From: Candidatus Omnitrophota bacterium
GTDB taxonomy: Bacteria > Omnitrophota > Gorgyraeia > JAZDFF01
DNA: 64,000 nt
Assembly: GCA_043808095.1 (NCBI GenBank)
Contig: JAZDFF010000015.1
Location: forward strand, 2,015-66,014
Direction of reading: 5' to 3'
A program made the position numbers and the translations under genes. Below are positions 45,239 through 64,000 of the stretch, in pieces (the stretch's first letter is position 1; the number at the start of each line of letters is the position of its first letter). Below the pieces are notes generated by a model. The model was not told the DNA's origin. It made no database searches and saw nothing but the letters and a program-made list of their open reading frames with translations.

Positions 45239-45262
45239 TACACAATGCCTTTTTGGTGGGTT

Positions 45263-47282: not shown

Positions 47283-48790
47283 CTTATAACTTTTTCCCTT
47301 AAGACCGCCCGCTTTACCATATCCAGTTCATCCATTCTCAAAATTAAGGCGGCAACCAAAAATACAGCTGCCCCTATAAGTATGGTAATTAATACGGGCA
47401 AGCGAATAATACACAGGATAATAACCATTATAGAAGAGGCCACGGCGGTTTTAGCAAAGGTTATAAAAATAGGCCTTTTTTCTTTTATTCCCATTTTCTT
47501 CGCCAGGGACCCTGCCAACAGCAAACAGATAACCGTTCCGTAAATGGAAAAAGCCAAAGCCAGGCCCCCTACTCCTAAGATATCTTTTAAGATTAGCCCT
47601 AAGATTATATTAATTATTATCCCGATTAGGCCTATTTTAAGCGGAGTAACCATATCCTGGAGAGAATAGAATGCGCGTATCAAAATTACATTAGCGCAAA
47701 ATCCAAGTAGTCCCCAGGAATAATAAAAAAGGGCATCTGCCGTCATCCCAACAGCCTGCGGGCCAAATTCTCCCCGCGCAAATAGTAGTTCAATGATTGG
47801 CCTGGCTAATATCATCAGTGCAGCTGATAAAGGAATTCCGATAAAAATTATTATCCTCAAAGAAGCGAAAAAAGTCTCTTTTAGATTAATCCAATCTCTG
47901 TCGACTTTCTGCTGCGCCATTACGGGAAAGGCAACTGTTCCTATAGTGGCACCTATAAAATCTACTACCAGATTTATCGGGTAGCGCGCGAAATTTAGCG
48001 CAGCGATGCTTCCTTCTGTGAGCGTAGAGGCAAAAATCCGTATGAAGACGTAGTTAATCTGAAATAGAATATTAACCGCCAAGACGGGAAGCGCCAGTCT
48101 GATTACTTTCTTAAGGGCCGGGTGATTGGCGTTAAAATAAAAAATGTTTCCGGTTTTAATTTTCCTGATAGCTATCCACTGTATAAAAAGCTGAAGCCCG
48201 CCGCCTGCTATTGCTCCAAAAGCTAATGAATAAATGCCTATCTGTTTCGATAAAAGCAAAATCACTGTAATTACACCTAAAGGAAAGACGAAAGATGCAA
48301 TTGCCGGAGTTACAAAACGCCGGTGAGCATTAAGCACGGCATTGGAAATGATTACGAGGCTCAAGATAATCACTAAGGGAGAGGTTATGCGGCTAAGTTT
48401 TGTTGACAACTGCGCTGTAGAAATAGGAAATCCGGGGGCTAAGAGTTTAATTAAACCGGGTGAGAAAACAAAATAAAAAAAGGTAACTACGGCAAGGCTT
48501 ATTACTGAAATGCCAATCAAACTGCTGACCAAATTCCAGGCCTGCCTCTTGTCTTCAATAGTCAATAATTCCGTTAATATGGGAATTAAAACAAAAAATA
48601 TTACGCCTCCGAACATAAAATCGCTGACAAAGGCAGGGATGGTTAAAGCAACGAGATAGGCATCCACTCCGGTAGTTGCTCCAAACTTTGCAGCAATGAG
48701 CATCTGAGTTGCTAAACCAAGAAAGGAGCGTATAAGATTGGCAGCTAATAAAATACTGATTGCTTGAGATAGTTTTTGCGTAAAGGACAT
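47279..48790 (-). CDS. MurJ/MviN-family flippase (MOP superfamily)
   Basis: 503 aa, 14 TM helices, with a MurJ-like N-terminus (ISILLAANLIRSFLGLATQMLIAAKFGA). Confidence 0.7.
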   Translation of the reverse strand: MSFTQKLSQAISILLAANLIRSFLGLATQMLIAAKFGATTGVDAYLVALTIPAFVSDFMFGGVIFFVLIPILTELLTIEDKRQAWNLVSSLIGISVISLAVVTFFYFVFSPGLIKLLAPGFPISTAQLSTKLSRITSPLVIILSLVIISNAVLNAHRRFVTPAIASFVFPLGVITVILLLSKQIGIYSLAFGAIAGGGLQLFIQWIAIRKIKTGNIFYFNANHPALKKVIRLALPVLAVNILFQINYVFIRIFASTLTEGSIAALNFARYPINLVVDFIGATIGTVAFPVMAQQKVDRDWINLKETFFASLRIIIFIGIPLSAALMILARPIIELLFARGEFGPQAVGMTADALFYYSWGLLGFCANVILIRAFYSLQDMVTPLKIGLIGIIINIILGLILKDILGVGGLALAFSIYGTVICLLLAGSLAKKMGIKEKRPIFITFAKTAVASSIMVIILCIIRLPVLITILIGAAVFLVAALILRMDELDMVKRAVLREKVIR

Positions 48791-48836
48791 CTCTGTTCTC
48801 TGTATAGGGCTTTGTCTCTATATAGAGATTTATCAA

Positions 48837-50102
48837 TTATTCCAAAAACTTCAATAGTCTGGATTCCGGATAATATTTTTTGATTAAACTTATTAATCCG
48901 TAGGCCACGAATATACTCAAAAATGGCTCCAAAGGCACTCGATATCGTGTGCCACTCGAACCATCGGACCCAAAAAAAATGAGACTAACAATAGTAAAAT
49001 AGATGGCTAATAGATGGATAATCCAAGTTTGCCTTGAATGTTTCAAAGAAAGAAAAAATCCTAAGACCATAAACGGAAAAAATAATATTCCATAAAGAAA
49101 AGTTATTATTGTATTCCTTAATGTGCTTGAATACCCCCATTGCCAGAATTTCAGGAATTTAAAATAGAGCAGTATTAAAAATTGTTTTGGATTTTCTTTG
49201 ATGAATTCCAAGGCCAACTTAGTATATCTTCGGTCTAAATCTATTTCAGATAAATTAGTTTTTATCCTGATACTATCAGGCATATACCATGTCCCACGCT
49301 TATCTACTTTCTTGAAGACCTCAGGATTATTACCCCCCCACAGGTTACGTCCTAAACCAATGTAAACAGGGATAAACTTGTGAAATACTCTGTAATTTCT
49401 ATAGGCCCAAGGGGTAATCACTAATGACATAAAAGAAATAATTAATAAAGTCATCCTAAGGACATCTTTTTTTGTGCGTAAATTTAACCAAAACCAAAGA
49501 AATATAAAAAATGGAAAGGCCAGTGCAATGGGTCTGGTAAGATTAGCCACACCCAGCCAAAGTCCGGCTCCCAAACACTGCTTCCAAGACGGCTTATCAA
49601 TAAATTTAACGACCCAGAGGACCGCTAAGAGAAGCAACAAGGTAAACAACGTCTCAGTTAACAAATATCCTGTAAGCAAGCAAAGATAGGGATGACCTGC
49701 CATAATTAATGCTGATAATAATCCTACGGCCTTACTAAATAGCCTGGCCCCAATAAGGTATCCTACAAGACAACTTAGAGAACCAATAAATATTTGTATC
49801 AGTTGAGCAATCCAATGCCTATAACCAAAAACCTTATATATTGCCGCTAAAAATAAAGGATAAAAAGGTCCGCGGTAGGCAAGGGCTGTCCCATCGATGG
49901 TAAAACCCTTTCCTTCGATTAAACTGTAGGCAATCTTATCATCTCCGCTGGCGTCGGCAGTATAAATCCCATCCCATCCCACAACTAAATATATGGTGGC
50001 TAATCTTGCCAGAAGAGCAACTACAAATATTATGCCCAATATACATCTAATTTTACTCTCAAAAAAATGATAAAAAAATTTATGTAGTTTCACGGCGGTC
50101 AA
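48837..50102 (-). CDS. GT-C membrane glycosyltransferase (ArnT/PMT, GT39/GT83-like), putative
   Basis: 421 aa polytopic protein. A DG-containing first periplasmic loop follows the first TM helix, as in the ArnT/PMT family. Confidence 0.5.
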   Translation of the reverse strand: MTAVKLHKFFYHFFESKIRCILGIIFVVALLARLATIYLVVGWDGIYTADASGDDKIAYSLIEGKGFTIDGTALAYRGPFYPLFLAAIYKVFGYRHWIAQLIQIFIGSLSCLVGYLIGARLFSKAVGLLSALIMAGHPYLCLLTGYLLTETLFTLLLLLAVLWVVKFIDKPSWKQCLGAGLWLGVANLTRPIALAFPFFIFLWFWLNLRTKKDVLRMTLLIISFMSLVITPWAYRNYRVFHKFIPVYIGLGRNLWGGNNPEVFKKVDKRGTWYMPDSIRIKTNLSEIDLDRRYTKLALEFIKENPKQFLILLYFKFLKFWQWGYSSTLRNTIITFLYGILFFPFMVLGFFLSLKHSRQTWIIHLLAIYFTIVSLIFFGSDGSSGTRYRVPLEPFLSIFVAYGLISLIKKYYPESRLLKFLE

Positions 50103-50173
50103 ATAGCATAAAACTTATAATCTTACTTTCTTTGTTCATTTCATAATGGAGAAACAAAAAGAAGAACTGCGCA

Positions 50174-51481
50174 TTATGCAAGGGCTTGCCTCTCTGTCCC
50201 CTCTTCAGCGGAAGAAGAGAGCTGTGGTATCATCACTATGATAGCAGTCAAAAACCAGAAAGGCTCCATAATCCGAACAACAATAAATGTCTGAGAGGAA
50301 AAGGAATGGAAAAATAGGCCAATAAAACCAGCCAAAAATCCTAAAGCCAATCCCTGGCTCCAATCATCTCTTATATTCCTGAGGGTCCATAAACCATTTC
50401 GAAAAATATTTATCAAAAGCCAGATAAATACCCAAAGCCCGATGATTCCTGTCTCTGCGAGTACGTAAGGCAATTGTGTATCCAAGACCGGCACACCGCC
50501 TACTCCGAAACCTAAAATTGGGCTTTCTTTTAACACCTTAAATATAAATTTCCAACTTTCAACTCGATGGGCTGCAGATTCATCTAATACGATACGTGCT
50601 CCTAATGCTTCATATTCCACCCCCGGAATAAATGTTGACTTTATCCGCTCAATTACGCTATTTGGTAAAAGAAATGGAGCGAGCATTACAAATAATAATA
50701 ATATAATAATGAGCGGCCATCTCATTCTATTGGTTAAAATTATAAAAGCCAAATACATAAAAATAAATCCCAAGTAACTACCTCTGGATAGGGTGAACAA
50801 AAAAGAGGGGAAGATAAAAAGACAAAGCCAACCTGCAAAAAACTTCCAGATGCCGGATTTGCTATATAAAAAAACCCCTAAGCTGACCGCAAATAGTAAT
50901 AGTAAATATCCGCCTAAGGTGTTCGGCTCACCACCGATTTCCTTTTCAAAGGGCGCACTAAGTCTTCCCTCTATTCCCAATTCGCCGATCTTAGTTGAAG
51001 TATAGACACAGACGAGAAAACATGTAATCAATAAAAAAGCTATAAATCTTTTTGCTTGTTTCATATTATCAAGATTGTTAATTACAAGAAAATAAATCAT
51101 AAAGTACTCAATATATTTCAAGACATGAAATAAACCAGAAAAAGGCGTAACCGCCCCCTTTATAATACCAAAGAGCGTAGAAAGAATACTTATAGATATA
51201 AAGACCGTGATTGGTAAATTCAAAGGAGATTTCTTTAATAGACCAAATTCCTTATTAACAGCCATCTTTACTAGCCAAGTAAAGAAAACTACCAAAACTA
51301 AAATATCATCTATTCTTACTACTACTGCCCTTTCCCCAAGCTGAGCAACTGATAACTCCGGAGAAAATAACATTGAGAAGATTAATACAATAATCCCAAA
51401 GTCAGTTTTTACTAATGTAATGAGACAAACAAACAGTCCGCTTAGTAAAATAATTGGTAAAAACTCATGCAAACCAATCAT
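50174..51481 (-). CDS. O-antigen ligase / Wzy-like polymerase family membrane protein
   Basis: 435 aa, ~10-12 TM, with the Wzy_C-type loop motif FTLSRGSYLGF. Confidence 0.7.
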   Translation of the reverse strand: MIGLHEFLPIILLSGLFVCLITLVKTDFGIIVLIFSMLFSPELSVAQLGERAVVVRIDDILVLVVFFTWLVKMAVNKEFGLLKKSPLNLPITVFISISILSTLFGIIKGAVTPFSGLFHVLKYIEYFMIYFLVINNLDNMKQAKRFIAFLLITCFLVCVYTSTKIGELGIEGRLSAPFEKEIGGEPNTLGGYLLLLFAVSLGVFLYSKSGIWKFFAGWLCLFIFPSFLFTLSRGSYLGFIFMYLAFIILTNRMRWPLIIILLLFVMLAPFLLPNSVIERIKSTFIPGVEYEALGARIVLDESAAHRVESWKFIFKVLKESPILGFGVGGVPVLDTQLPYVLAETGIIGLWVFIWLLINIFRNGLWTLRNIRDDWSQGLALGFLAGFIGLFFHSFSSQTFIVVRIMEPFWFLTAIIVMIPQLSSSAEEGTERQALA

Positions 51482-51663
51482 TTGATTCTCCGCATTCTAA
51501 GAGTAAAGACTATTACTAAAATAAATATTAAGATTAAAAAAATGGTAGGGCTATATTCTTGATAAATATTAACAAAGAGGCAAAGCAGACTGACTAATAA
51601 AATACAAATAACAACACATAACATAAATAGTTTCCCTTTGGATATCGGCTTTATGACAGCCAA
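51478..51663 (-). CDS. Small membrane protein, hypothetical (4-nt overlap with the Wzy-like gene)
   Basis: 61 aa, two hydrophobic helices. ATGA overlap with the downstream gene. Confidence 0.3.
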   Translation of the reverse strand: MAVIKPISKGKLFMLCVVICILLVSLLCLFVNIYQEYSPTIFLILIFILVIVFTLRMRRIK

Positions 51664-51788
51664 GCCTACAAAGGTAATTAAAACTGATAAGAGAATAAAG
51701 AATAGTATATCCGTTAGATTACCTCTCTAATAAAAAAGGGCTATTTAGCCCTTTTCCTATTCCTAGAGATTAAATATGATTATTATCA

Positions 51789-53726
51789 TTAAGTATCGGT
51801 GAGTCTCTTACCCGAATCTTCAGAGTCTTCACTGGAATAATAGTATTTATATTTATAATGATAATATGGATAATAGCTGCTTTGGATTTCTGTCTCGGGC
51901 TGGGTATGATTTAAGACCACGCCTAACATCTTTGCACCCGCCGACTCTAGTTGTACCTTTGTGCGTAAAAGTGCTGCCCTGGCAGTACGGCCAACCTCAT
52001 AGACTAAAACCACCCCGTCTAACTTTGGCGAAAGAATTACTGCATCGCTGATAGATAGGGCAGGAGGAGAGTCAAAAAGCACCAGATCAAAATCGCTTTT
52101 TAGTTCCCTAATTATATCGGACATTACAGTAGAACCTAATAGTTCGGCCGGGTTAAGAGGAATATGGCCCGAACTTAAAATCTTCAGATTATCCAATCCG
52201 GGCGTCTTTAGCGCCTCGCTAATGTCAACCTTGCCAACTAAGATATCAGATAGGCCCCTTAGCGCCTCCTTTAATTTTAATGTTCCCGAGATGACTTCCG
52301 ATAAACCGGGATCGCGCTCTACTCCAAATACCCTTGCTATCGTAGGTCTCCTTAAGTCCGTATCTACGATAACTACCTTTGTGCCCATTTGAGCAAAGAT
52401 AAGACCTAGACTCACCAAGACAGTGGTTTTTCCTTCCCTAGGACCGGTGGAGGAAAAAAGTATTGTCTTTTGACTAGGGTTTATCTTAAGATTAGTTCTT
52501 AAGATACGGTAGGCCTCAGAAACCGGAAGATGAGGATGGTATTGAACAGTTAAACAAGTGGCAGAGAAATCTAATGTCTGGCTTGTTTCTTTTTTCCTAA
52601 ATCTTAAACTAAAAAAATGCCCTTTCTGTCTCTTTTTTAAATTCTCCCTCTCTTGTAATCTTACGGAAGGAATAATTCCCAATACAGGCAAGTTTATAAG
52701 TTTTTCTACATCTTCGATTGTGCCGATAGAGGTATCTAAACTTTCTGTCACAAAGGTAAAAATTAGTCCAAGCATAATTCCCATCAAAGAACCCACAATT
52801 AAATTTAGGCCTTTATTTGGCTTAATAGGATAAGATGGTTCGATAGCCTGATTTATAGGCGTAACATCCGGGGTTTTTTCAGCCTCAGCAATACGGGAGG
52901 CTTCAAATTTTTCTCTGAGCATCCTGTATGTCTGTTCATTTATTTCCTTATCTCGATTTAGACGTGCATATTCAAGTTCACTGGCAGGCAAAGTCTTGTT
53001 CTGTTCTTCTAATTGACTAATCTCTTCTCTAAGCCGGATTATCTGAGGATGTTTTTCGGTAGCCTTGGTAAGGAGTTCGCTGGCCCGGCCTTTTAATTCT
53101 ACCAATCTTCTTTCGAGTTCAATGGCTACTCCTGTAACGGACTCTCTCTCTTTAAAGGCCTTTAATTTCTCTTCTGCCTGATTCAGCTCCTTCTCTACTG
53201 CAGCAAGCCTCTCTTGGACAAATTGGCGGGTCTCTGTTGCCTCTCTGCGTTTCTGGTTCAAATTTTCATCTATATAGACCTGCACAGCCATATTGGCAAT
53301 ACGGGTTATCTTTTTCGGGTCACTACCAGTTACAGATATATTAATTATATTGGTATCCTTTAGCTTCTCAGCAAAGATGCTTCCCTGAATATCGCTAATA
53401 ACTGCCTTTTTTTCATTATCAGACATTTTCTCATCAACAAAACCCAGCCTTTTAGCCGCCTTTTCTGCAACTTTACGGCTCTGAATGACATTTATCTCGG
53501 TATCTAAAGGGTTTCCCGGTCGAAAGTACATCTCCTCCACAAGGGCACCAATTACGGTCTTTTTTTGTTCATACCTTACGGTTGCAGAGGTCTGAAATAC
53601 GACGGGCTGCATCTTTGTATAAAATACTGTCAATACAAGCGAAATAAGAAAAGCGGAGCCAATGAGAATCCTTCTTTTTCGAAATATCCTAAGATAATCC
53701 TGGAAATTTAATTCGTATTGGGGCAT
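51789..53726 (-). CDS. Polysaccharide co-polymerase / BY-kinase (Wzc-like), paralog of 17238..19133
   Basis: 645 aa. Identical N-terminus MPQYELNFQDYLRI, P-loop FSSTGPREGKTTVL and C-terminal Tyr cluster YYPYYHYKYKYYY. Confidence 0.8.
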   Translation of the reverse strand: MPQYELNFQDYLRIFRKRRILIGSAFLISLVLTVFYTKMQPVVFQTSATVRYEQKKTVIGALVEEMYFRPGNPLDTEINVIQSRKVAEKAAKRLGFVDEKMSDNEKKAVISDIQGSIFAEKLKDTNIINISVTGSDPKKITRIANMAVQVYIDENLNQKRREATETRQFVQERLAAVEKELNQAEEKLKAFKERESVTGVAIELERRLVELKGRASELLTKATEKHPQIIRLREEISQLEEQNKTLPASELEYARLNRDKEINEQTYRMLREKFEASRIAEAEKTPDVTPINQAIEPSYPIKPNKGLNLIVGSLMGIMLGLIFTFVTESLDTSIGTIEDVEKLINLPVLGIIPSVRLQERENLKKRQKGHFFSLRFRKKETSQTLDFSATCLTVQYHPHLPVSEAYRILRTNLKINPSQKTILFSSTGPREGKTTVLVSLGLIFAQMGTKVVIVDTDLRRPTIARVFGVERDPGLSEVISGTLKLKEALRGLSDILVGKVDISEALKTPGLDNLKILSSGHIPLNPAELLGSTVMSDIIRELKSDFDLVLFDSPPALSISDAVILSPKLDGVVLVYEVGRTARAALLRTKVQLESAGAKMLGVVLNHTQPETEIQSSYYPYYHYKYKYYYSSEDSEDSGKRLTDT

Positions 53727-53738
53727 ATTGGAATGGTA

Positions 53739-54773
53739 TTAAAATCCCAAAGTCTGAAGCTGGGTCGCAACAGAGGAGGCTTTGTATATAGGATCGATTA
53801 GTTGTGTAAGGAAGTAATTTAGATTAGCAATAAATTTTTTAGGCACATAGATTATGTCTTCGGGCTGGGTTAAAAGGTCACTACTCACCTGGCCTTTATC
53901 AATGGCCCTGGTTAGATTAACACGTCGTATCTCTGGATTAAATGGGGCCCCTCGGATAATAATTACGCTATTTAAAACTGCATGCTCAGAAAAACCGCCG
54001 GCTAAGGCAATCGCCTCTAAGATATTGGCTATACCTGTTGGCTTGTATACACCGGGATTTTTTACTTCACCCAAGACAATGATCTTTTTGCCTCCTATCT
54101 GTTTTAATGATATGGAAACTTTGGGGGATGAGAGCAAATCTTTTAATTTTTCTGTTAAAGTACCGGAAAGTTCATTAAGGCTGAGGCCCTCGGCTTGAAC
54201 ATCGCCTAATAGGGGAAGGCTTATTTTACCATCGGGACGCACCATTAATTCTTTGGATAAATCCTCAACTTTTTCAAATCCCACCCTTCTTTTACCAAAT
54301 TCCTGTACCATTACCGAAACCTCAGGCGACTTAATAAACTCCTTAAGTTTTTCTGTTAAAATCCCGTCTAATTCGGTTAAGGTAAGGCCCTCTGCATAGA
54401 TATCATCTACGAGAGGAAAAGAAATCTTGCCGTCTGGCCGGACAATCACAATCTTGGCTAAATCTGGCCACTGCCAGACAGATATATCTAAGACATCTCC
54501 GGTTGAAATAGTATATTCATTTTCAGGCCCCTTTTCTTTTGCCTTCTCCAATCGACCAAACCCCTGCCAGACACCAACCTCTAAAATATCCTCCGGGCCA
54601 ATTTTATATTCGAAAGGTTTAGGCTGTTCTTCCTGAGACTGAGACAATTCTGTTTCTATCTTCTTAATCTCGGATTCAATCTCGGACTCTAAGACGGGAT
54701 TAGCAGTAACGCAGCCTAAAAATGATAGGGCAAAAATTATTAAAAGACAGGATTTATATTTATTTTTATACAT
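53739..54773 (-). CDS. Polysaccharide export outer-membrane lipoprotein (Wza/Poly_export + SLBB family)
   Basis: 344 aa. Lipobox LSFLGC, Poly_export motif YKIGPEDILEVGVWQ and two SLBB-like repeats (VRPDGKISFPL / VRPDGKISLPL). Confidence 0.75.
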   Translation of the reverse strand: MYKNKYKSCLLIIFALSFLGCVTANPVLESEIESEIKKIETELSQSQEEQPKPFEYKIGPEDILEVGVWQGFGRLEKAKEKGPENEYTISTGDVLDISVWQWPDLAKIVIVRPDGKISFPLVDDIYAEGLTLTELDGILTEKLKEFIKSPEVSVMVQEFGKRRVGFEKVEDLSKELMVRPDGKISLPLLGDVQAEGLSLNELSGTLTEKLKDLLSSPKVSISLKQIGGKKIIVLGEVKNPGVYKPTGIANILEAIALAGGFSEHAVLNSVIIIRGAPFNPEIRRVNLTRAIDKGQVSSDLLTQPEDIIYVPKKFIANLNYFLTQLIDPIYKASSVATQLQTLGF

Positions 54774-54857
54774 TATTTATTTAACTATAATATACACAAT
54801 CACTTAGGCCCTGTCAAGCAAAATGAAATTCAAAATACGACGAGCCTTAGTGAGCAA

Positions 54858-55670
54858 TTAGGTAAAGCTTTCTATCTCATCTTTTATGATTATTTCATCA
54901 ACAACAGAGGCCTTTTCTATAAATCCGGTTAAAAGACCAAGATCGCAGATACGGTTAATCCTGCGCGGTATACCTCCAGAGAAATCAAAAATAGTTTTTA
55001 ATGCTTCTTCTGTAAAAATTGGAGCGTCTCTTCTACTTACTTTAAGTCGATGAAGAACGTAGTTCTTTGTCTCTTCTTGGTTTAAGGCGTTTAAATAACA
55101 TTTTATCGCTATCCTTTGTTCAAAAGGTTTATTGTCTTCGATCTTTTGCCTCAATTCTGGCTGGCCGAATAACAACAGGGTTAAAAGAAATCTATTCTGT
55201 TGGTGAAAGTTTAAAAGAAGCCTCAATTCATTAAAAACCTGGTCATCCTGAATGATATGCGCCTCATCAACAATAATCACGGTATCTTTACCTTCCCGGT
55301 AATTTGCCATGAGGATATTTTCTAAAACCTCGTGTAGATAATCCGTAGAGATTTCTGTTTTTTTAGTGGGCAGTTCTATCTCTTTTAAGTTCCTTACAAT
55401 TGCCCTAAGTAGATCGACATACTCCAATTGGGGATTGGTAATGGATGCTACTTGGTAATGCTCTTTCTTGAGTTCATCAAAGATAGCCTCGGCCAAAACA
55501 GTCTTTCCGCAACCAAAAATTCCGGTTAGCATAGCTGCCCCCACTCGTTCCTTAATAGCATAAAGCATGCGCGATAAGGCCTCTTGGTGCTGATTAGAAT
55601 AGTAAAGAAAACGCGGGTCAGGGGTATTTTGAAATGGCTTCTGATTTAGGCCCCAATATTCTTCGTACAT
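54858..55670 (-). CDS. ExeA/GspA-like AAA ATPase (EPS-locus type)
   Basis: 270 aa. MYEEYWGLNQKPFQNTPDPRFLYY, GIFGCGKT and IIVDEAH. Confidence 0.75.
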   Translation of the reverse strand: MYEEYWGLNQKPFQNTPDPRFLYYSNQHQEALSRMLYAIKERVGAAMLTGIFGCGKTVLAEAIFDELKKEHYQVASITNPQLEYVDLLRAIVRNLKEIELPTKKTEISTDYLHEVLENILMANYREGKDTVIIVDEAHIIQDDQVFNELRLLLNFHQQNRFLLTLLLFGQPELRQKIEDNKPFEQRIAIKCYLNALNQEETKNYVLHRLKVSRRDAPIFTEEALKTIFDFSGGIPRRINRICDLGLLTGFIEKASVVDEIIIKDEIESFT

Positions 55671-55744
55671 ATTATTTTAACTTACTCACTTACTCATTAT
55701 AATAAAGATTAACGAAATTGTCGAATAAAACAATCATTTAGATT

Positions 55745-56539
55745 CTATTCAAAACCTTTTATCTCTTCTTGAACAATATCATCGTCTATAAGGTCAAACT
55801 TTTTGATAAATCCTGCCAAGAGGCACATATCGCATAGACGGTTAATTCTACGTGGTATACCGCCAGAATAATTGTAGATTGAACGAAGGGCTCTTTCAGA
55901 AAAAATCGCGGCTGTGCGATTGGCAACCTGCAAGCGGTGAACAATATATTTTATGGAATCTTCCGGGGTTAAGCCGTCTAAATGGGCCTTTACATTAATC
56001 CTCTGCTCTAATTGTATATTCTCTTCAATTTTCTGCTTTAATTCTGGCTGGCCCAAAAGCAATAATGTTAAAAGAAATCTGTCTTGCAGTTGAAAATTTA
56101 AAAGCAGCCTTATTTCTTCAAAGACATTCTCGTCATTTATGGCGTGTGCCTCATCAATAATAACTACGGTTTGTTTACCGTTTCGCATATTGTTTAATAA
56201 CGCGTCATTAAGAATGTTCAAAACATCTGCTTTTCTTAGGGGGGCAGGATTGCCTAATTGATAAAGAATCATCCTTAAAAGCTCGATATCATCGAGCTTG
56301 GGATTAGCTATAAAGGCAGTTTTATACTGCTCGCTGCTGAGTTCCTTTAATACTGCTTGAGCAAGCATAGTCTTACCACAGCCAAATACACCCGTAAGCA
56401 TAGCTGCGCCCATCTTCTCTCTTACGGTATAGATAAGACGCATTAATGATTCCTCGTGTTGACTTGAACGATAAAGAAAACGCGGGTCAGGGGTATTTTG
56501 AAATGGCTTCTGATTTAGGCCCCAATATGCTTCGTACAT
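55745..56539 (-). CDS. ExeA/GspA-like AAA ATPase (EPS-locus type)
   Basis: 264 aa. MYEAYWGLNQKPFQNTPDPRFLY, GVFGCGKT and VIIDEAH. Confidence 0.75.
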   Translation of the reverse strand: MYEAYWGLNQKPFQNTPDPRFLYRSSQHEESLMRLIYTVREKMGAAMLTGVFGCGKTMLAQAVLKELSSEQYKTAFIANPKLDDIELLRMILYQLGNPAPLRKADVLNILNDALLNNMRNGKQTVVIIDEAHAINDENVFEEIRLLLNFQLQDRFLLTLLLLGQPELKQKIEENIQLEQRINVKAHLDGLTPEDSIKYIVHRLQVANRTAAIFSERALRSIYNYSGGIPRRINRLCDMCLLAGFIKKFDLIDDDIVQEEIKGFE

Positions 56540-56675: not shown

Positions 56676-57581
56676 TTGACAATAAACCCTAACCCTGCTA
56701 TTATAAGCTCAATGATGGATTTATCTATTATCATCGTCAATTATAATGCCAAAGATGTTTTAAGTCAATGTCTAAATTCAATTTACGACAATACCAAAGA
56801 CGTTGATTTCCAGATAACTGTTATTGACAATGCTTCAGGAGATGGCAGTCCGCAAATAATAAGGCAAAGATTCCCTCGCGTAAAATTAATCCAAAATAAT
56901 GTAAATTCGGGCCTGACCCAAGCGCAAAACCAGGGTTTAAAGCTGGCACAAGGTAAATATCTTCTGCTCCTGAATAACGACACCTACTTACAACCTCAAG
57001 CCATAAATAAACTGATAGAATTTATGGACCAAAACCCCGACGGAGGGATTGCCGGGCCAAGAATTTATACTAATGCAAATATACAAATTTCATTTGCCTG
57101 GATGCCGAAAAATCCCCATTTATTTCTGCCCTATATTTTGTTCAAGAAGCTGTTTCTAAATTACGAATTGAGAAGGCATAACTACAATCTAAATAACAAC
57201 CTAGAGGTAGACTATGTTTCAGGCGCTTGTCTAATGATACGCAAGACAATTATGGAAAATATTGGCTATATGGACGAGGGCTATTTTGTCTATAACGAAG
57301 ATGATGACTTATGCCTGCGCGTAAGACAAAAAGGTTATAAGATTTATTACCTACCTGAAGCAAAAGTGATTCATCTGCGAGGAAAAGGCGGCGGTGGGTT
57401 ACACCCCTACAGGATGATCCTTGAAATTCATAAGGGGATATTTAGACTGTATAGAAAATTTTATCCTAAGCCAAATTTTCTTCTGGACACTCTTATTTTG
57501 GGGATGTTAACACTTAGGCTGGGGTTAGCGATTATTATTCAATCCGTACGCTCTCTCAAGAGACTGTTTTTCCGTTCCTAG
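56676..57581 (+). CDS. Glycosyltransferase family 2
   Basis: 301 aa. LSIIIVNYNAKDVL...LLNNDT (DxD-like) in a GT-A fold. The only plus-strand gene in the right half. Confidence 0.75.
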   Translation: MTINPNPAIISSMMDLSIIIVNYNAKDVLSQCLNSIYDNTKDVDFQITVIDNASGDGSPQIIRQRFPRVKLIQNNVNSGLTQAQNQGLKLAQGKYLLLLNNDTYLQPQAINKLIEFMDQNPDGGIAGPRIYTNANIQISFAWMPKNPHLFLPYILFKKLFLNYELRRHNYNLNNNLEVDYVSGACLMIRKTIMENIGYMDEGYFVYNEDDDLCLRVRQKGYKIYYLPEAKVIHLRGKGGGGLHPYRMILEIHKGIFRLYRKFYPKPNFLLDTLILGMLTLRLGLAIIIQSVRSLKRLFFRS

Positions 57582-58710
57582 ATAAATTCAAAAAAATTTT
57601 AAAAGGCCGCAGGATATAACTGATATATGCCTTTAAATAAGATTTCGCAGGATAACGATATCTGAGTAATCCCTTATCCGGAAAAATATTGCTAATGAGC
57701 AATTTAATCAGGCTACCTGTTGTATCAAACATCAGGAATTGAACAAGATAGCTGACCTTGCCTAAATCTTCTTCCTGCCAGATATAGTCTTTTTTTAGAA
57801 TGCGGGAAATGACTTTCTTTTTTAACTTAGAGGGTGAGAATTTTTGTATAATTTCACCCTCTATCGGCGCACCTAAGATATCTTTACAATAACTCAGGCA
57901 ATAATAAATCATATTCTTTGTTCCCGATTCATTGGCGGTCTTTAATAATTTATCCCACGAAATGCTCTCTTTATAGACCTCAAGTATTCTTTTGATATCA
58001 TACAGCCAGATAATATTTTCGAAAAAATGAATCATGGTTAAATGCAAGGACAAATACAGGATATTATCTTCGACTGATAAACCCAGACAATCTAGACCTT
58101 CAATCTTAAAATTTACTGCTCGTCTGTAAAACATAATTTCGTCGATATTCAAAACTCTATTAAATTTATTATGTAGAACTTGCCAATGTATTTCTATAAG
58201 CAACTTGGCCGATAAAGTAAGACTGTCATCCCCATTTCGGCTATAAATGATAGAACCGAAGTCCCGTGTACTTATTTTATAACCCAGCCCTTCAAGACAT
58301 TTTTCAGTAATATCCAATTGCCCCGGCAATATCAGTATATCAATATCAATCATTGGCCTTAAACCGGGATTGTCCCCGTATACGCTATTTATAAGAGCTG
58401 TCCCTTTTAGAATAATTGACCTTATGCCTAATTTGTCTAGCGCCTTGAGTATTTTTGCCAATTCTCTAAGCGCAAGGGTATTTTGGGTTAGGACGCAATA
58501 ATAGTTGTTTTCGAGATCTTTCCTGATTAAATCAGGGACCGAAAGAAGCAAATTTGCCTTTTTTAAATTATAAAAGATAACAGTAGCTATGCCTTTCTTC
58601 TTAGCCAATCCCACAAGATAAGACCAATCTTCGTCTTTAACATTAGCTAAGGTATCTGGGTTTATTTTGCCGTTTAAAAGTTCTAAGATGATTTTTTTGG
58701 GAAGGTCCAT
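57556..58710 (-). CDS. Nucleotidyltransferase-family protein (PF14907-like)
   Basis: 384 aa. Helical N-terminal region followed by a GTALINSVYGDNPGLRPMIDIDILI (G...D.D) nucleotidyltransferase-fold motif. Assigned by pattern memory only. Confidence 0.45.
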   Translation of the reverse strand: MDLPKKIILELLNGKINPDTLANVKDEDWSYLVGLAKKKGIATVIFYNLKKANLLLSVPDLIRKDLENNYYCVLTQNTLALRELAKILKALDKLGIRSIILKGTALINSVYGDNPGLRPMIDIDILILPGQLDITEKCLEGLGYKISTRDFGSIIYSRNGDDSLTLSAKLLIEIHWQVLHNKFNRVLNIDEIMFYRRAVNFKIEGLDCLGLSVEDNILYLSLHLTMIHFFENIIWLYDIKRILEVYKESISWDKLLKTANESGTKNMIYYCLSYCKDILGAPIEGEIIQKFSPSKLKKKVISRILKKDYIWQEEDLGKVSYLVQFLMFDTTGSLIKLLISNIFPDKGLLRYRYPAKSYLKAYISYILRPFKIFLNLSRNGKTVS

Positions 58711-58765
58711 TTATGGGATGATTTTAATAAACCTGAAAAGGCATTTTAAACGCTAATTTTCGCGA

Positions 58766-58781
58766 ATCTAACGCTAATATT
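58766..58781. promoter_or_regulatory. 16-bp perfect palindrome AATATTCGCGAATATT within a CGCGAAT-word promoter-region repeat
   Basis: Read directly. Lies upstream of the nucleotidyltransferase-like gene start (58710). The same region carries GAATCTAACGCTAAT, which is also present at 9216..9230. Confidence 0.5.
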
Positions 58782-58851
58782 CGCGAATATTCACTCTATT
58801 ATTAGCGTAAATTCGCGTTTGATTAGCGAGAATTCGCGTTCAAGAAGGTTT

Positions 58852-60600
58852 TTAGAGATCTCTTTGTAATTTTGCAAATTCTAAGTTTTTATATTCTAAC
58901 GAGTCGAGGAATTCTTTAGTGCTACTTATTATAATTTCATTCTGGCTTTTTAAGAAATAAACCCGATCAACAAAATTTAACATACTTAACCGATGCGAAA
59001 TAATTATGCAGGTAAGATTTTTTCTTTTGCCTAACAACTCTTCCAGTATCCTTGTCTCTGAGCTGACATCTAATGAAGAAAGTGCTTCATCAAGGATAAG
59101 TATGGCCGGCTTTTTGATGACCGCCCTGGCAATAGCAATACGTTGCTTCTGGCCTTCAGAAAGTAGAGTAGCATTCTCTCCTATCTTAGTATCATATTTC
59201 TGAGGCAATTCATTAATAAAACTATCGATACCGGTTAATTGTGCCACGCTCATTATTTCATCTTGCGTTGCATTCGGTTTTCCATATTTAATATTGTTTT
59301 CAACTGTATCGTTCCACAAAAATGGCTCCTGGAGGGCAATTCCAATCTGCTCGTAGAGCGCCTCAAACTTTATTTTTTCTAGATTATTGCCGTCAATAAA
59401 AATCTCGCCATTCTGTGGCTCAAATAACCTTAAAATTAGATTTATGATAGTGGTCTTACCGCATCCAGATGGCCCGATAAGGGCAATATGAGTCCCTGGC
59501 TCTATCCTAAAATTCATATTTTCCAGGATAGGCTTTTTATCGCCGTAGGCAAATCTAACCTCTTTAAAGACAATCTCGCCTTTAGTAAACTTAACCAGCG
59601 AGGCATCGGGACTTGCCTTTATCTGCGGCTCTTGACTTAAGATCTCATCTATCCTTGAACAAGAAAGTGTCCCCATAGCTACTTGCTGGAAAAAGTTGGC
59701 AAATCGTGATTGCAGGCCAAATAGTTGGTTGATATAAAGCATTATGGCGGTCAGGCTGCCGAAAGTTAGCCGGCCTTTAATCACCCAGTATCCTCCATAG
59801 AAAAAGATTATTCCGCTAACCAGGCGGGACATAACATTACCGCTAAAACTACTCATCGCCCCTAACTTCGTAGTCTTTTTGGATAATTTTAGATTAATGA
59901 TTAGTTGTCTTAAATAGGCCCTGAATTCATTTATCTCTTTTCCAAAAGCCTTGACTAACTGGATATGCGAAAAGACCTCAGCCAGGCGTTCGTATATGTC
60001 TTGAGAATTTTTAAAGAGTTCCTCATAGAGGGTTTTTAGCCTCTGCATAAAATAATAAGGCACAAAATATAAAAATGGAATCAAAAATAAAGATAATAGA
60101 GCGAGTTGCCTGTCCAGATAAAAGATAATTGCGAAGATAAACAAGGTGCGCGGCAAGATGGTTAAAATCTCTGAGAGCGATGAAGTAATAAAACTAATTA
60201 CCCTGTCTATATCATAACTAATCCTGTAGATATGCCCTCCGGTAGATTTTTCCTGGAAGAAGGAAAAGGAAAGTTTAGTTAAATGACCAAAGACCTTTTT
60301 ATGTAAGTCGAATCTTAACTTTAAATTCAGATAACTGCTAAGGTAGGTGGTTGCGGCATTGAGCAGTCCCGTCAATATAAACAATCCGCCCATGGATAAG
60401 CCGATAATGATAAAAAAGGTCGGGTCTTTGGCTAAGAGACCTTTATCAATAAGCAATTTGCTTAAATACGGGTTCGCCAGGCCAAAGACAACAGCTACTT
60501 CCCCTAAGACAATTACCAGAAGTTCTGTCTTCCAGTAAGGTAAGAGGAACTTGGCAAATTTTAGAAAAAGCCTGAGATCTTCTTTTTTAAGTTGCTGCAT
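58852..60600 (-). CDS. ABC exporter, fused permease/ATP-binding protein
   Basis: 582 aa. 6-TM exporter domain, Walker A GPSGCGKTT, signature LSEGQKQRIAIARA and Walker B ILILDEALS. No C39 peptidase domain. Confidence 0.8.
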   Translation of the reverse strand: MQQLKKEDLRLFLKFAKFLLPYWKTELLVIVLGEVAVVFGLANPYLSKLLIDKGLLAKDPTFFIIIGLSMGGLFILTGLLNAATTYLSSYLNLKLRFDLHKKVFGHLTKLSFSFFQEKSTGGHIYRISYDIDRVISFITSSLSEILTILPRTLFIFAIIFYLDRQLALLSLFLIPFLYFVPYYFMQRLKTLYEELFKNSQDIYERLAEVFSHIQLVKAFGKEINEFRAYLRQLIINLKLSKKTTKLGAMSSFSGNVMSRLVSGIIFFYGGYWVIKGRLTFGSLTAIMLYINQLFGLQSRFANFFQQVAMGTLSCSRIDEILSQEPQIKASPDASLVKFTKGEIVFKEVRFAYGDKKPILENMNFRIEPGTHIALIGPSGCGKTTIINLILRLFEPQNGEIFIDGNNLEKIKFEALYEQIGIALQEPFLWNDTVENNIKYGKPNATQDEIMSVAQLTGIDSFINELPQKYDTKIGENATLLSEGQKQRIAIARAVIKKPAILILDEALSSLDVSSETRILEELLGKRKNLTCIIISHRLSMLNFVDRVYFLKSQNEIIISSTKEFLDSLEYKNLEFAKLQRDL

Positions 60601-60697
60601 TTCGTCTATTTTATTAACGGATGCATACGCCTACCAACAAGGCAGACAGGGATTTCTGCGAATTCGCTTGTTTGACTATCTGATAAAGTTAAAGGGC

Positions 60698-60937
60698 TTA
60701 AGAAGATGCAAAGCCTGAGAACGTGGACTCGCCGTAATCACCGCGTGCCGCAGTGTCTACTCCGTACTTCCCCTTGATCAGTAAATCGCCCTGACACAAC
60801 GTCCTCAGCGAACTTAGCGCGAACACGCCTTCGACTATGAATCCGACCCCTGTATAGCACTGGCAGCTCAACACTGCCTGCTCAGGGTTAAGTTTTACCC
60901 GGGTGATTTCGGGTCTGAATTTAGGTCGTCTGGACAT
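60698..60937 (-). CDS. Small GC-rich ORF (79 aa, Cys-containing) of unknown function; candidate precursor peptide or small protein
   Basis: Strong SD GGAGGTGA 4 nt upstream of ATG (MSRRPKFRPEITRVKLNPEQAVLSCQCYTGVG...). Local GC ~50% versus ~35% in neighbours. Sits between the GxxExxY/rSAM-SPASM genes and the ABC exporter. Confidence 0.4.
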   Translation of the reverse strand: MSRRPKFRPEITRVKLNPEQAVLSCQCYTGVGFIVEGVFALSSLRTLCQGDLLIKGKYGVDTAARGDYGESTFSGFASS

Positions 60938-61027
60938 TGGTTCACCTCCATTTTTGAACACAAATTTTCACGAATTAATATACGAAAATTCTAAGATTTA
61001 TCGAATTTACACGAATAATTTTTGTTT

Positions 61028-61402
61028 TCAAAAGATGTGTCGTTTTATTTCTATTTTGTCTGACCCAAGGTTAACTAAGTAACCTAACTTATATTCAGAA
61101 CCCTTTAGATAATGATAAAGTTGTAACTCAAAAACTTTAGGCATATGCAAAACCGATTTCAACTCGACAACAATCTTATCCTCTATAATAAAATCGGGTT
61201 CATAAAAGCCAACTTCTTTACCTTCGTATTCAACCTTTAACCTTCTCTTTGAATTATATCTTATCTTTTGCTTATCAAACTCTATTTTTAACGCTTTATG
61301 ATAAATCTCTTCTTTATGTCCCGGTCCGAGTGTATTATAAACTTTATAAAAACAACCAACTAACTTGTACGATAATTCCTTATATAGTATTTTCTCGGGC
61401 AT
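61028..61402 (-). CDS. GxxExxY family protein (PD-(D/E)XK-like), paralog of 13502..13924
   Basis: 124 aa with signature LGPGHKEEIYHKAL. Confidence 0.7.
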   Translation of the reverse strand: MPEKILYKELSYKLVGCFYKVYNTLGPGHKEEIYHKALKIEFDKQKIRYNSKRRLKVEYEGKEVGFYEPDFIIEDKIVVELKSVLHMPKVFELQLYHYLKGSEYKLGYLVNLGSDKIEIKRHIF

Positions 61403-61469
61403 ATATTCGTGTTAATTCGGCTTTTTATTCGTGTTAATTCGTGTCCAGATTCGTATTCATTCGAAAAAA

Positions 61470-62543
61470 TTAGTGAATATTCGTGCTTAAATGCGCCAAC
61501 TCGCAAAACCACTCCACCGGTTTCTCTAAACTGCCGGTTTCAAGATACGCTCTTCCAGGACAACTGAAACACATCTTTCTCAGGGAACAACTGCTACACC
61601 TTCCATTACTAGATGATCTCTGTATCCATACCCAGTCTAAAATCTGTTTTTGGGCCTCCTTGACTTCTTCTTTTAGCAAATTTATCTTCGGTTTTCTGAT
61701 ACAACTGCAAGGAAAGATATTGCCATAGGGATCGATGCTGATGCCATCGCCTCCTCCTATGGCACAACGGAACAACTTGGTATTTGGCCTGGGGTTTTTA
61801 TCATAAAGCCTGCGACCTGTTCCATCAGTTAATTTTTCACAATCCTCATCTCGTAACTTTTTTCTTCCATCCAAACTAAAAACCTCTTCTGGCTTTATGC
61901 GCAAATCACAGGGTGTTAACTCCTGGTTTAAACGGGCATGGATATAAGGACTGGGACGAAATTTTATCCCCAAATTCCTTATGAATCTTTTTACCTTTGG
62001 CATCTGGCCCAAATTCTCATTTATCACCATGGTCTTAATCTTGAGAGGAATATTTCGCTTCTTTATCATCTTTATACCTTCAATCGCCTTTTTAAATGAG
62101 CCTCTAACCTGTGTAATCTGCTCATAGACATTTTTTGTTATCGCATTTAGAGTAATTTCAATGACAAAGGGAGGCGATTTTGCTAAATAGTCGGCTATTT
62201 CTCTAGTCATAGAAAAGCCATTAGTAAAGATAGTGATGATAAAACCCTTATCTTTTGCGTAAGAGTAGATTTCTAAAAAGTCTTTTCTGGTCAAAGGGTC
62301 GCCTCCGGTAAAACAAAGCCAGATAATCCCATAATCTCTTACCTTATCCAACAAAGATTTTACCTGGCCAGTGGTCAGCTCCTTTTTTAAATATCGGGGT
62401 TTATTGTAACAATCACAGTAGCAATAGTTACAATGGAGCCCGCAGCCGAAGGTCAATTCAAACTGGCAGACATTGATGCGCTTTATGCGCCAATTAATCT
62501 TATGCGTCTTGAGACTAAAGTTCTTATACCGGATTTCTCTCAT
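61470..62543 (-). CDS. Radical SAM / SPASM-domain maturase-like protein
   Basis: 357 aa. CGLHCNYCYCDC (CxxxCxxC) and C-terminal SPASM Cys cluster CSSCSLRKMCFSCPGRAY. Confidence 0.75.
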   Translation of the reverse strand: MREIRYKNFSLKTHKINWRIKRINVCQFELTFGCGLHCNYCYCDCYNKPRYLKKELTTGQVKSLLDKVRDYGIIWLCFTGGDPLTRKDFLEIYSYAKDKGFIITIFTNGFSMTREIADYLAKSPPFVIEITLNAITKNVYEQITQVRGSFKKAIEGIKMIKKRNIPLKIKTMVINENLGQMPKVKRFIRNLGIKFRPSPYIHARLNQELTPCDLRIKPEEVFSLDGRKKLRDEDCEKLTDGTGRRLYDKNPRPNTKLFRCAIGGGDGISIDPYGNIFPCSCIRKPKINLLKEEVKEAQKQILDWVWIQRSSSNGRCSSCSLRKMCFSCPGRAYLETGSLEKPVEWFCELAHLSTNIH

Positions 62544-62579: not shown

Positions 62580-62900
62580 CTTAGCATTTTAAATTTACCC
62601 GCCTTCGCAGAAAGCTACGACCGTAAGGCCATAGATGAATGCCAAGCGGGTAATCCGCCGAAGTCCGTCTTCGCTCAATTGCTTTCGCATTGAGCTTCGC
62701 CGAGATCCCGCCGAAGTCAAACACGTTAAGCGTTTGACGTAGGCGGACCAAAAACGAAAGTATTTTGGCGAAGGCGGATACTGCTTCGGCGGGTTTCGCC
62801 GAAGTTCTCCTTCGCTCTTTGAGCTTCGGAGAAATCTTGCCGAAGCCTTGGCGTAGGCAGACATGTGAAGATGCTATGGCCGTTAGGCCATAGAGCTTCA
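62580..62900. repeat. GC-rich degenerate tandem-repeat / stem-loop element (family copy 2) bounded by inverted ggccatag words
   Basis: Internal ~40-50-bp degenerate repeats (ccgccgaagtc...cttcgctc...agcttcg..gagat). Hairpin gtcaaac-acgttaagc-gtttgac. Shares cttcgc / agcttcgg / gcgaaggcgga words with 7080..7320. The ORFs called inside it (106 and 89 aa) look spurious. Confidence 0.45.
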
Positions 62901-64000
62901 CTAAATATCTTTAATCTCTAAAGCATGTTTTTTAAATAATTTTTCTCTATCTTCTTTTATGAGAGATAAAATACTGCCGGGAACGATGGAATGATCATAT
63001 TTTTTATATAGATATTGGGCAAGACTTAACCAAGAATTAGCGAGTTTTGCCAAAATTACCATAATTTTAATGCTACCATTCTCTATCTTTTTTATTTTAT
63101 CAAAAGATAGCCCTTGTTCCTCTGTCACTTTTAACCAACTTTCTAATATTCCTGTGGGGGATATATCCAAATCTTTGACTATGCCATAAAACGATTCCTT
63201 AAATAACCCGCGGTTTATGAGGATGCTGACGGTCTGTTCTAATTTCATAGTCTTTTTTAAATCTTTAGCTGAATAAGTATCACTTTTATACGCATAATAA
63301 GGAGGATTTCTATCGTATCTGATTTTAAACCGTGCTGCTAATGGACGCAGATTTGTTCCCGGTAACATCATAAGCCTTTCTATCTGAAAATTCGGCGGAC
63401 GCAACCTAAATAAAAAGTCTAAAGAGGTAGAGAATGTACGGTAATTATCCTGCGGTAGGCTCGCTATGAGCTGGATCTGATAAAATAGACGCTTTTTATT
63501 TAAGAGTAAAATATTATTTCTAAATAAACTGGGGCTGAAACTTCTGTTCATCAATTTTAATGCCTCTTTGTTAGTGGACTGGACCCCTATTTCGATAAAA
63601 TTTGCCCTGGCTTTATGCAATAGCTCTACCATTTGTCTATCCAATAATTCTGCCCTCAGTTCAACGTGTAACCTTGAATTTTTATTATGCCTTATGAAGA
63701 TTTTAAGAATCTCTTTTGCCCTTTTCCTATCAAAATTAAAGGTCGGGTCCATCAGATAAATAGTGCCAGGGTCTTTTTTAAGTATAAATTCAAATTCTTC
63801 CTCTATTCTTTCTAAGGAAAAATAACGTAAATTTTTAAAACCTTTATGATAATAGCAATAATTACATTTAAAGGCGCATCCTCTCATTGTCTCAACGGGA
63901 TATTCATCTTTTGGCACTATGTCTATTAACCTTTCTAAATACGGGGAAGGGATAATATTTAAATTAGATAAATCCTGCCCTTGTTTATTAAAAATTATTC
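62901..64000 (-). CDS. Radical SAM protein, probably B12-binding class (5'-truncated by the window edge)
   Basis: CAFKCNYC (CxxxCxxC) lies ~15 aa from the listed GTG start. The reading frame stays open upstream to position 64000 (…NKQGQDLSNLNIIPSPYLERLIDIVPKDEY…), so the N-terminal (B12-binding) domain is expected beyond the window. Confidence 0.6.
   Translation of the reverse strand, partial: IIFNKQGQDLSNLNIIPSPYLERLIDIVPKDEYPVETMRGCAFKCNYCYYHKGFKNLRYFSLERIEEEFEFILKKDPGTIYLMDPTFNFDRKRAKEILKIFIRHNKNSRLHVELRAELLDRQMVELLHKARANFIEIGVQSTNKEALKLMNRSFSPSLFRNNILLLNKKRLFYQIQLIASLPQDNYRTFSTSLDFLFRLRPPNFQIERLMMLPGTNLRPLAARFKIRYDRNPPYYAYKSDTYSAKDLKKTMKLEQTVSILINRGLFKESFYGIVKDLDISPTGILESWLKVTEEQGLSFDKIKKIENGSIKIMVILAKLANSWLSLAQYLYKKYDHSIVPGSILSLIKEDREKLFKKHALEIKDI

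Follow-up and report, generated by a model that had tools for sequence, protein, structure and literature searches.

Here, we analyzed a small open reading frame (ORF) in a 64,000-nucleotide (nt) stretch of DNA from a Candidatus Omnitrophota bacterium; the whole stretch is referred to below as the window. The ORF is GC-rich, lies on the minus strand, and encodes a peptide of 79 amino acids (aa). Read along that strand, the surrounding cluster consists of a class-B-like radical S-adenosylmethionine (SAM) gene, a GC-rich repeat island, a radical SAM/SPASM gene, a GxxExxY cassette, the peptide gene itself, an ABC exporter gene, a repeat hairpin, and an NTP_transf_5 gene. Judging from the sequence comparisons described below, the ORF is quite probably the precursor gene of a peptide synthesized on ribosomes and modified after translation (RiPP), one member of a large unannotated family that comes with a radical SAM modification cluster.

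A GC-rich small gene

The coding sequence occupies positions 60698..60937 on the minus strand and runs from an ATG at 60935-60937 to a stop codon at 60698-60700. A first-pass annotation of this DNA had pointed out the ORF with its strand unstated, and the 79-aa product that it quoted is identical to the one found here. The mechanically called ORF (60698..60961, minus strand) opens at a GTG and would give 87 aa; the 79-aa product opens at the ATG at 60937, which the family alignment (M-[SP]-R-K-P-K-F...) identifies as the true start. The near-consensus Shine-Dalgarno sequence followed by ACCA and ATG, also claimed in that annotation, is readable as GGAGGTGA at 60942..60949 (minus strand), with the ACCA spacer at 60938-60941 placing it 4 nt before the ATG.

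A motif search over 82 fetched loci yielded 91 distinct homologous ORFs, all of them intact and differing in length by in-frame changes. Within a 15-codon conserved block of these 91 genes, the entropy at codon positions 1, 2, and 3 was 0.455, 0.263, and 1.378, respectively, and at the invariant Asn-Pro-Glu-Gln-Ala-Val the third base alone varied. Because variation is almost confined to third codon positions, the pattern is that of a translated gene, and on this comparative ground we conclude that the GC-rich ORF is a protein-coding gene under purifying selection.

The same annotation had raised the option of a structured noncoding RNA whose GC richness creates an accidental ORF, and had suggested covariance-model and folding tests. 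The idea that this is such an RNA, or a chance frame in a GC-rich patch, draws on the high GC content of the region and on the scarcity of stop codons in GC-rich sequence. We give it next to no credence. Against it stand not only the wobble-position variation and the frames kept intact despite length variation in the 91 homologs, but also 852 relatives at the protein level (see below) and a strong, correctly spaced Shine-Dalgarno sequence. Neither strand folds more stably than shuffled sequence (minimum free energy [MFE] z of -0.19 and -0.05), and no Rfam model matched at the peptide gene, whether at a permissive E <= 1 on 58-64 kb or at gathering thresholds on the whole window; the Rfam scans returned only three tRNAs and one palindrome artifact. 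The structured-RNA option is thus refuted. The homolog search with the 79-aa product, proposed in the same place, returned a protein family with intact frames that no known-family model matched.

Two further descriptions in the first-pass annotation, a GC content of about 50% in a low-GC context and codon usage unlike that of the flanking genes, also hold. GC content is 0.525 in the ORF versus 0.380 in the whole window, and 0.535 in 60700-60899 versus 0.30-0.40 in the flanks; only 58 of 3188 240-nt windows reach 0.50 or more. When the same peptide was recoded according to codon usage in the long ORFs of the window, the expected GC was 0.458 (standard deviation [SD], 0.020) versus 0.532 observed, and the expected GC at third codon positions (GC3) was 0.390 (SD, 0.053) versus 0.595 observed. 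Both differences correspond to z = 3.8 and are beyond chance. Neighboring genes have a GC3 of 0.30-0.44, and the elevated value is found in both the leader (0.59) and the remaining part (0.60) of the peptide gene, which also has a GC at second positions (GC2) of 0.49, versus 0.33. The GC excess is roughly half amino acid composition and half a real synonymous bias toward G/C-ending codons, with the high GC stemming partly from a composition rich in Gly, Ala, Ser, Thr, Pro, Arg, and Cys that is common to the whole family.

This signal is not peculiar to the window. GC2 exceeds that of neighboring genes in all 77 of the family members compared (+0.145). The GC3 excess over neighbors averages +0.038 (SD, 0.089) and is positive in 51 of the 77 (Wilcoxon p = 7e-4); the conserved leader block has a GC3 of 0.50 versus 0.40 in neighbors. 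Because GC2 is raised throughout and the leader block carries its own GC3 excess, the bias travels with the family, and most of the GC signal belongs to the gene family as such. These family-wide values also count against recent horizontal acquisition from a higher-GC donor, whatever the gene's function, which the first-pass annotation had listed as another option. Acquisition would fit a GC3 that exceeds both the recoding expectation and every neighboring gene and that stands near the upper end of the family's own excess. The anomaly is limited, however, to the 240 bp of the gene. Since GC content is also just 37-39% in the loci closest in leader DNA and the adjoining cognate enzymes have native composition, a high-GC donor finds no support, and we regard acquisition as very improbable.

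Peptide family and gene neighborhood

A word-index search recovered 123 homologous small proteins of 53-136 aa, nearly all of them metagenomic, with the named ones assigned to Candidatus Omnitrophota. When 1.84 billion cluster representatives were searched with a profile, 852 matched at E <= 1e-3, each the representative of a 50% cluster, and 663 at E <= 1e-10. Among GTDB species genomes we located 75 loci, mostly in Omnitrophota, with a few labeled Elusimicrobia, Planctomycetales, Saganbacteria, WOR-3, and Chloroflexota. No Pfam or NCBIfam (June 2026) model matches this peptide or eight other members, and full-text literature searches found no paper on the peptide family or on Omnitrophota precursor peptides.

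Members of the family share a nearly invariant N terminus (KPKF.P.ITRVKLNPEQAVLSC.C) with the consensus M-x-R-K-P-K-F-[KR]-P-x-I-T-R-V-K-L-N-P-E-Q-A-V-L-S-C-x-C-[YFW], in which the alignment columns F7, P9, L16, N17, P18, E19, Q20, A21, V22, L23, C25, and C27 are invariant. In the window's peptide, this conserved part comprises residues 1-27, MSRRPKFRPEITRVKLNPEQAVLSCQC (60857..60937, minus strand), a putative leader plus the CxC motif, and DNA similarity to other loci is restricted to it. An aromatic residue (Tyr, Phe, or Trp) follows CxC in 227 of 260 members. Beyond it, the body is hypervariable in sequence and length (mean of 53 residues) and rich in Gly, Ser, Thr, and Ala; in the window's peptide it spans residues 28-79 (60701..60856, minus strand). 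The next Cys stands a median of 22 residues past CxC among the 260 members and corresponds here to Cys48 (60794-60796), which is invariant in alignment A1. In about two-thirds of the 260, another Cys, which the window's peptide lacks, follows about 13 residues later. The last residue is Ser in 242 of 260 (93%) and Thr in 13, and 140 end in SS, as does the window's peptide with Ser78-Ser79 (60701-60706). An AlphaFold2 (AF2) model of the peptide, built with the family alignment, has no confident fold (predicted local distance difference test [pLDDT] 52.7, predicted template modeling score [pTM] 0.15). On inspection, 'AVLSC' was rejected as a lipoprotein or signal-peptide motif, since a hydrophobic h-region is lacking and the residues immediately upstream are charged.

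Several different copies per genome are common, with three each in related loci L001 and L008 and many in two Omnitrophota metagenome-assembled genomes (MAGs). Among paralogs in one locus, leader DNA identity is 0.6-0.97, and the cores are at about 0.5, the level of unrelated sequences. A diversity-generating retroelement was considered and rejected, as the variable region is present only once in the 64 kb. In related contig L005, a family member is followed immediately downstream by a 121-aa fragment of RVT_1 (reverse transcriptase) at 10338-10703. A shorter sister 'CC' subtype (...LNPEQAVLSCC-D..., 54-72 aa) ends in Ser in 37 of 38 members. It occurs as many dispersed copies in a few Omnitrophota and Saganbacteria MAGs (L056-L082; e.g., L057 8224-12119 and L068 35-5189), often in tandem arrangements a long way from any radical SAM gene.

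We examined gene context in 41 CxC-type loci of at least 10 kb. Radical SAM genes, usually three, are present in 38 of these, ScmC-like genes in 33, PqqD in 32, an ABC exporter in 29, NTP_transf_5 in 17, and Peptidase_U32 in 12. The nearest radical SAM/SPASM gene is a median of 77 bp from the peptide gene and shares its strand in all 48 cases; for PqqD, the median is 142 bp, again on the same strand (37/37). On the annotated contigs of relatives, the neighbors of the peptide gene are PqqD, a ScmC-family gene (PF27840), an ABC exporter, NTP_transf_5, and between two and four radical SAM genes, sometimes joined by Peptidase_U32, class-B radical SAM, and methyltransferase genes. In related locus L002, the order after the peptide gene is radical SAM genes, ABC, NTP_transf_5, Poly_export, Wzz, and Wzy, and the window follows the same order; the L002 peptide gene lies upstream of its two radical SAM genes, and the window's lies just before the ABC gene.

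The window's own radical SAM/SPASM enzyme, the candidate maturase (61470..62543, minus strand; 357 aa), matches PF04055 at 1.5e-24 and has readable SPASM-type C-terminal Cys motifs. Its NCBIfam alignments to PqqE, PapB, and the GeoRSP radical SAM family are full length and all below cutoffs. It is 38.6% identical (E 1e-65) to the radical SAM enzyme beside the peptide gene in L003 and 30% identical to that of L002. A second radical SAM gene with a class-B/PhpK-like core (62901..64000, minus strand) is cut by the window end, its frame open to 63998. On the other side, the gene for a 582-aa ABC exporter with transmembrane and nucleotide-binding domains, without a C39 peptidase domain, starts 98 bp downstream of the peptide gene (58852..60600, minus strand). 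Between the two, 39 nt past the peptide stop, lies a short hairpin, GCAGA-loop-TCTGC (60642..60659, minus strand); it is weak, with 5 pairs and a poor T tract, and may be a partial terminator. The exporter gene is followed by a gene for an NTP_transf_5 'uncharacterised nucleotidyltransferase' (57556..58710, minus strand; PF14907, 2.8e-51), a candidate tailoring enzyme.

Where Peptidase_U32 occurs among the related loci, in 12 of 41, it is paired with an unannotated gene of 280-295 aa (e.g., L001 2564-5155 and L007 13414-15334). The U32 proteins UbiU/UbiV, TrhP, and RlhA are known to be O2-independent hydroxylases, not proteases. By analogy, the U32 proteins of these loci might hydroxylate the peptide instead of cleaving it.

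A predicted precursor peptide and its candidate maturation pathway

The features described above favor the precursor-peptide option of the first-pass annotation. The ORF is under protein-level selection, a hypervariable body or core stands behind a conserved leader, and the gene is tightly linked to PqqD and radical SAM/SPASM genes across the family, with PqqD not visible in the window itself. PqqD-type domains bind leaders and deliver them to radical SAM/SPASM maturases in the pathways for pyrroloquinoline quinone (PQQ), mycofactocin, sactipeptides, and ranthipeptides. It is because of these established pathways that we assign a leader role to residues ~1-24 and propose the Cys residues as sites of radical chemistry. 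In the predicted pathway, a PqqD-like recognition protein would bind residues ~1-24 and present the peptide to the SPASM enzymes, which would install cross-links or other radical modifications at the conserved Cys residues (Cys25, Cys27, and Cys48). A ScmC-like kinase could then phosphorylate the C-terminal Ser, NTP_transf_5 could decorate the Ser phosphate, and the ABC transporter adjoining downstream would, to judge from its position, export the product.

Several observations weigh against this interpretation. The window contains no PqqD or ScmC-like gene even at E < 1, and neither an exact-protein lookup of the SPASM enzyme nor an exact 50-mer scan of metagenome contigs recovered sequence beyond 64000; the upstream half of the cluster is presumably cut off, and the PqqD and ScmC-like genes, if present, lie past that point. 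The inserted GxxExxY cassette parts the peptide gene from the SPASM gene. All of the cluster enzymes score far below the curated cutoffs of every named family, too low for a reaction type to be read from them. Nor does any gene stand out as a leader peptidase: the ABC exporter is without a C39 domain, and Peptidase_U32, found in 12 of the 41 related loci, is absent from the window. The 'CC' subtype is often away from the enzymes, with radical SAM genes in only 6 of its 14 long loci. Finally, the excess of G/C-ending codons has no explanation in a RiPP-precursor model; expression-linked codon choice, mRNA properties, or gene conversion among paralogs may be its cause.

An alternative that we consider unlikely is that the peptide gives rise to a small molecule or cofactor, as happens with PqqA (PQQ) and MftA (mycofactocin). 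In that case, no more than a short conserved motif (for example, C-x-C-[Y/F/W] at 25-28, or the C-terminal Ser) would enter the product, and the body would be a disposable spacer. A cluster with a PqqD-like protein and SPASM enzymes is indeed of the type that makes PQQ and mycofactocin. The window's SPASM enzyme matches the mycofactocin maturase (1.1e-27) and PqqE (3.9e-27) models, a nearby family 2 glycosyltransferase (GT2) has a weak match to the MftF model, and the aromatic residue that commonly follows CxC suits such a product. Yet the PQQ and mycofactocin model matches are all far below cutoffs, a dedicated ABC exporter adjoins the gene, and several copies per genome with wholly different cores would be unexpected for a single cofactor. 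Nor does the body look like free spacer, because its length (mean of 53), its Gly/Ser/Thr richness, its one or two spaced Cys residues, and its terminal Ser are all kept.

It is also doubtful that the gene encodes a small unmodified Cys-rich protein, such as a regulator, a chaperone-like partner, or an envelope peptide of a polysaccharide locus, with the conserved N terminus as its functional part. Such a role would accord with Poly_export/Wzz/Wzy genes that border the cluster in the window and L002 as well as in about one in three long loci, with an N terminus far more conserved than typical leaders, and with the dispersed 'CC' copies that often lack nearby enzymes. The same-strand spacing of 77 bp to SPASM and 142 bp to PqqD genes, seen in almost every CxC-type locus, is, in contrast, the signature of an enzyme-substrate pair, and hypervariability behind a conserved N terminus is the RiPP pattern. 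The peptide has neither a signal peptide or hydrophobic segment nor a confident fold.

Within the RiPP-precursor interpretation, the ScmC-like proteins of the relatives suggest what may happen at the C terminus. These proteins match the TIGR04249 ScmC model (28/28), HprK-related kinase B (27/28), HPr(Ser) kinase (21/28), and Pfam Hpr_kinase_C (22/28), all below cutoffs, and H156, K178 (in a GxGKST P-loop), D196, and D197 are invariant among them. The AF2 model of a ScmC-like protein (pLDDT 81, pTM 0.82) had as its only PDB fold matches PEPCK (E 3e-8) and HPr kinase/phosphatases (E 2e-5 to 2e-4; 1knx at 2.4e-5, 1kkl, and 3tqf); sequence-only PDB searches, single and profile, gave HPrK as a weak match at E 0.8. 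As modeled, the ScmC-like protein has a PEPCK/HPr-kinase fold.

Lasso-peptide kinases with a His-Lys-Asp-Asp motif phosphorylate the conserved C-terminal Ser of their precursor, and PsmN, an 'uncharacterised nucleotidyltransferase', adds hexoses to that phosphate (PMC9266682, PMC6993621). The tailoring systems of paeninodin (PadeK), ThcoK, and pseudomycoidin (PsmK/PsmN) resemble the present clusters in combining an HPr-kinase-type kinase (here, the candidate ScmC-like kinase), a nucleotidyltransferase, a PqqD-type protein, and an ABC exporter, and in both the C-terminal Ser is a conserved precursor feature (PMC9266682, PMC6993621). Because candidates for both enzyme types recur here along with the conserved Ser of the substrate, we propose by analogy, and tentatively, that Ser79 might be phosphorylated and then decorated by NTP_transf_5. 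One weakness of this analogy is that PsmN is only presumed, from a matching Pfam description, to belong to PF14907. A full-text literature search on PF14907 found only a phosphonate paper.

The lasso likeness extends to the cluster PqqD, whose best NCBIfam match is the Bacillus lasso PqqD model. The precursors here differ in being much longer and Cys-containing and in being paired with SPASM enzymes, and their phosphorylation is only a prediction. No lasso cyclase (Asn-synthase-like) or B2 protease was found among the called genes of the annotated loci L001-L007, so these are not lasso systems.

The closest named system is the SynChlorMet (SCM) cassette, which comprises ScmC, the PqqD-like ScmD, and the SPASM enzymes ScmE and ScmF (TIGR04248-TIGR04251, PF27840). 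The relatives' loci likewise contain a PqqD-like protein, at least two SPASM enzymes, and a ScmC-family protein, with PF27840 precomputed on all of the ScmC-like proteins. The equivalog cutoffs, however, are missed 3- to 6-fold: ScmC reaches 3.5e-9 at best (cutoff, 125 bits), ScmD 28.5 versus 100 bits, and ScmE/F about 65-84 versus 400 bits. There are usually three SPASM enzymes here, together with an ABC exporter, NTP_transf_5, and sometimes U32 or class-B radical SAM proteins, and neither ScmC nor ScmD is visible in the window, where the cluster runs off the end. Because every component fails the equivalog scores, we regard these clusters as remote relatives of SCM by architecture and not as members. 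The SCM cassette was reportedly defined in its TIGRFAMs description without an identified precursor and with its target unknown; full-text literature searches found no paper on SCM cassettes. A further difference is that a candidate precursor family is identified here.

Two other groups of RiPPs share individual traits with this family. Like sactipeptides and ranthipeptides (SCIFF, PapA-PapB), it has a Cys-containing precursor and SPASM enzymes with full-length, subthreshold alignments to PapB, StsB, AlbA, and SkfB. It differs from these in having three paralogous maturases per cluster, in a leader unlike any modeled leader family, and in the absence from the peptide of any known precursor or acceptor motif. 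Like the prochlorosins and the Nif11 and NHLP leader families, it combines a near-invariant N terminus, at the DNA level too among paralogs, with unrelated cores and several copies per genome. Its leader is unrelated to theirs, however; radical SAM enzymes take the place of lanthionine synthetases or cyclodehydratases, and the exporter comes without C39 or a GG cleavage signal.

A more far-reaching possibility, which we hold as speculative, is that these peptides form a new RiPP class and are the missing substrates of SCM-type cassettes. They would carry CxC...C cross-links made by up to three paralogous SPASM enzymes and a phosphorylated, decorated C-terminal Ser, the work of a PEPCK/HPrK-fold kinase and an NTP_transf_5 enzyme, and the class would be widespread in Omnitrophota and in some neighboring candidate phyla. 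The cores would then possibly be of 50-60 residues, with lasso-type tailoring recruited to a radical SAM pathway and a possible link to polysaccharide export.

Radical SAM RiPP precursors are expected in uncultivated phyla; what stands out is how large the family is, that it is linked to SCM-type cassettes, and that its tailoring pair is lasso-like. Omnitrophota are uncultivated, often ultrasmall bacteria whose interactions with other cells are poorly understood. If the precursor assignment holds, at least 850 distinct precursors with dedicated radical SAM machinery would constitute a main set of their secreted or surface molecules, and SCM-type cassettes would gain a substrate with directly testable chemistry. 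For annotation, this family demonstrates that short GC-rich ORFs in these low-GC genomes, now 'hypothetical' or uncalled, are real genes.

Repeat arrays and other features of the window

The GxxExxY/PD-(D/E)XK cassette (60955..61485, minus strand) lies between the SPASM and peptide genes, with its own gene at 61028-61402. On both sides of this gene are inverted arrays built from a ~22-nt unit with ATTCGTG(TTAATTCG), comprising four direct copies (61395-61485) and inverted copies (60955-61018). The cassette looks like a small mobile or cassette-like element. Upstream of the peptide gene, two sigma-70-like promoter matches overlap within the left repeat arm of the cassette (60977..61031, minus strand; TTGAAA-16-TAAATT and TCGATA-16-TATATT, a consensus match only, 9/12 each), and the cassette may supply the promoter of the peptide gene. 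The ATTCGTG heptamer occurs 18 times in the window versus 4.8 expected, with clusters at 1946-2534, at 20182-21154, and in the cassette. Related clusters L001, L002, and L005 also have PDDEXK_3 or 23S_rRNA_IVP genes scattered through them.

A second array, of inverted ACGCGAAT/ATTCGCG units, fills the intergenic region between the ABC and NTP_transf_5 genes (58711-58851) and folds as a long hairpin (MFE of -40.4 kcal/mol, z of -5.1). It looks like the repeat arms of the GxxExxY gene in an 'empty' form. The Rfam MIR403 match to this region, on both strands, was dismissed as a spurious palindrome artifact. Between the two radical SAM genes, a second GC-rich island (62581-62901; 0.54 GC, ~320 bp) is noncoding by appearance, with spurious ORFs on both strands and no Rfam match. 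It contains short 'ttcgccgaag'-type palindromic motifs and has similar ends (62612-62635 and 62870-62893), and a partial copy of it lies at 7089-7143. The island is probably a repetitive extragenic element.

A polysaccharide export/O-antigen-type locus adjoins the peptide cluster in the window (39342-56539), in L002 (16058-20258), and in roughly a third of 22 long loci. It contains Poly_export, Wzz/GNVR of the tyrosine-kinase type, Wzy_C, PMT_2, a MurJ-like flippase, GT1 and other glycosyltransferases, and a methyltransferase; an AAA_22 gene pair lies at 54858-56539. A functional link of the peptide to this locus, for example, as a glycosylated or envelope-attached peptide, is possible.

The remaining features noted in the window, at 30846-31427, 40874-41452, and 44051-44617, at 7373-8842, at 13520-13855, and at 3101-3790, comprise additional radical SAM-like genes, a second ABC exporter paralog (33% identity), a second GxxExxY gene (37% identity), and the three tRNA genes.

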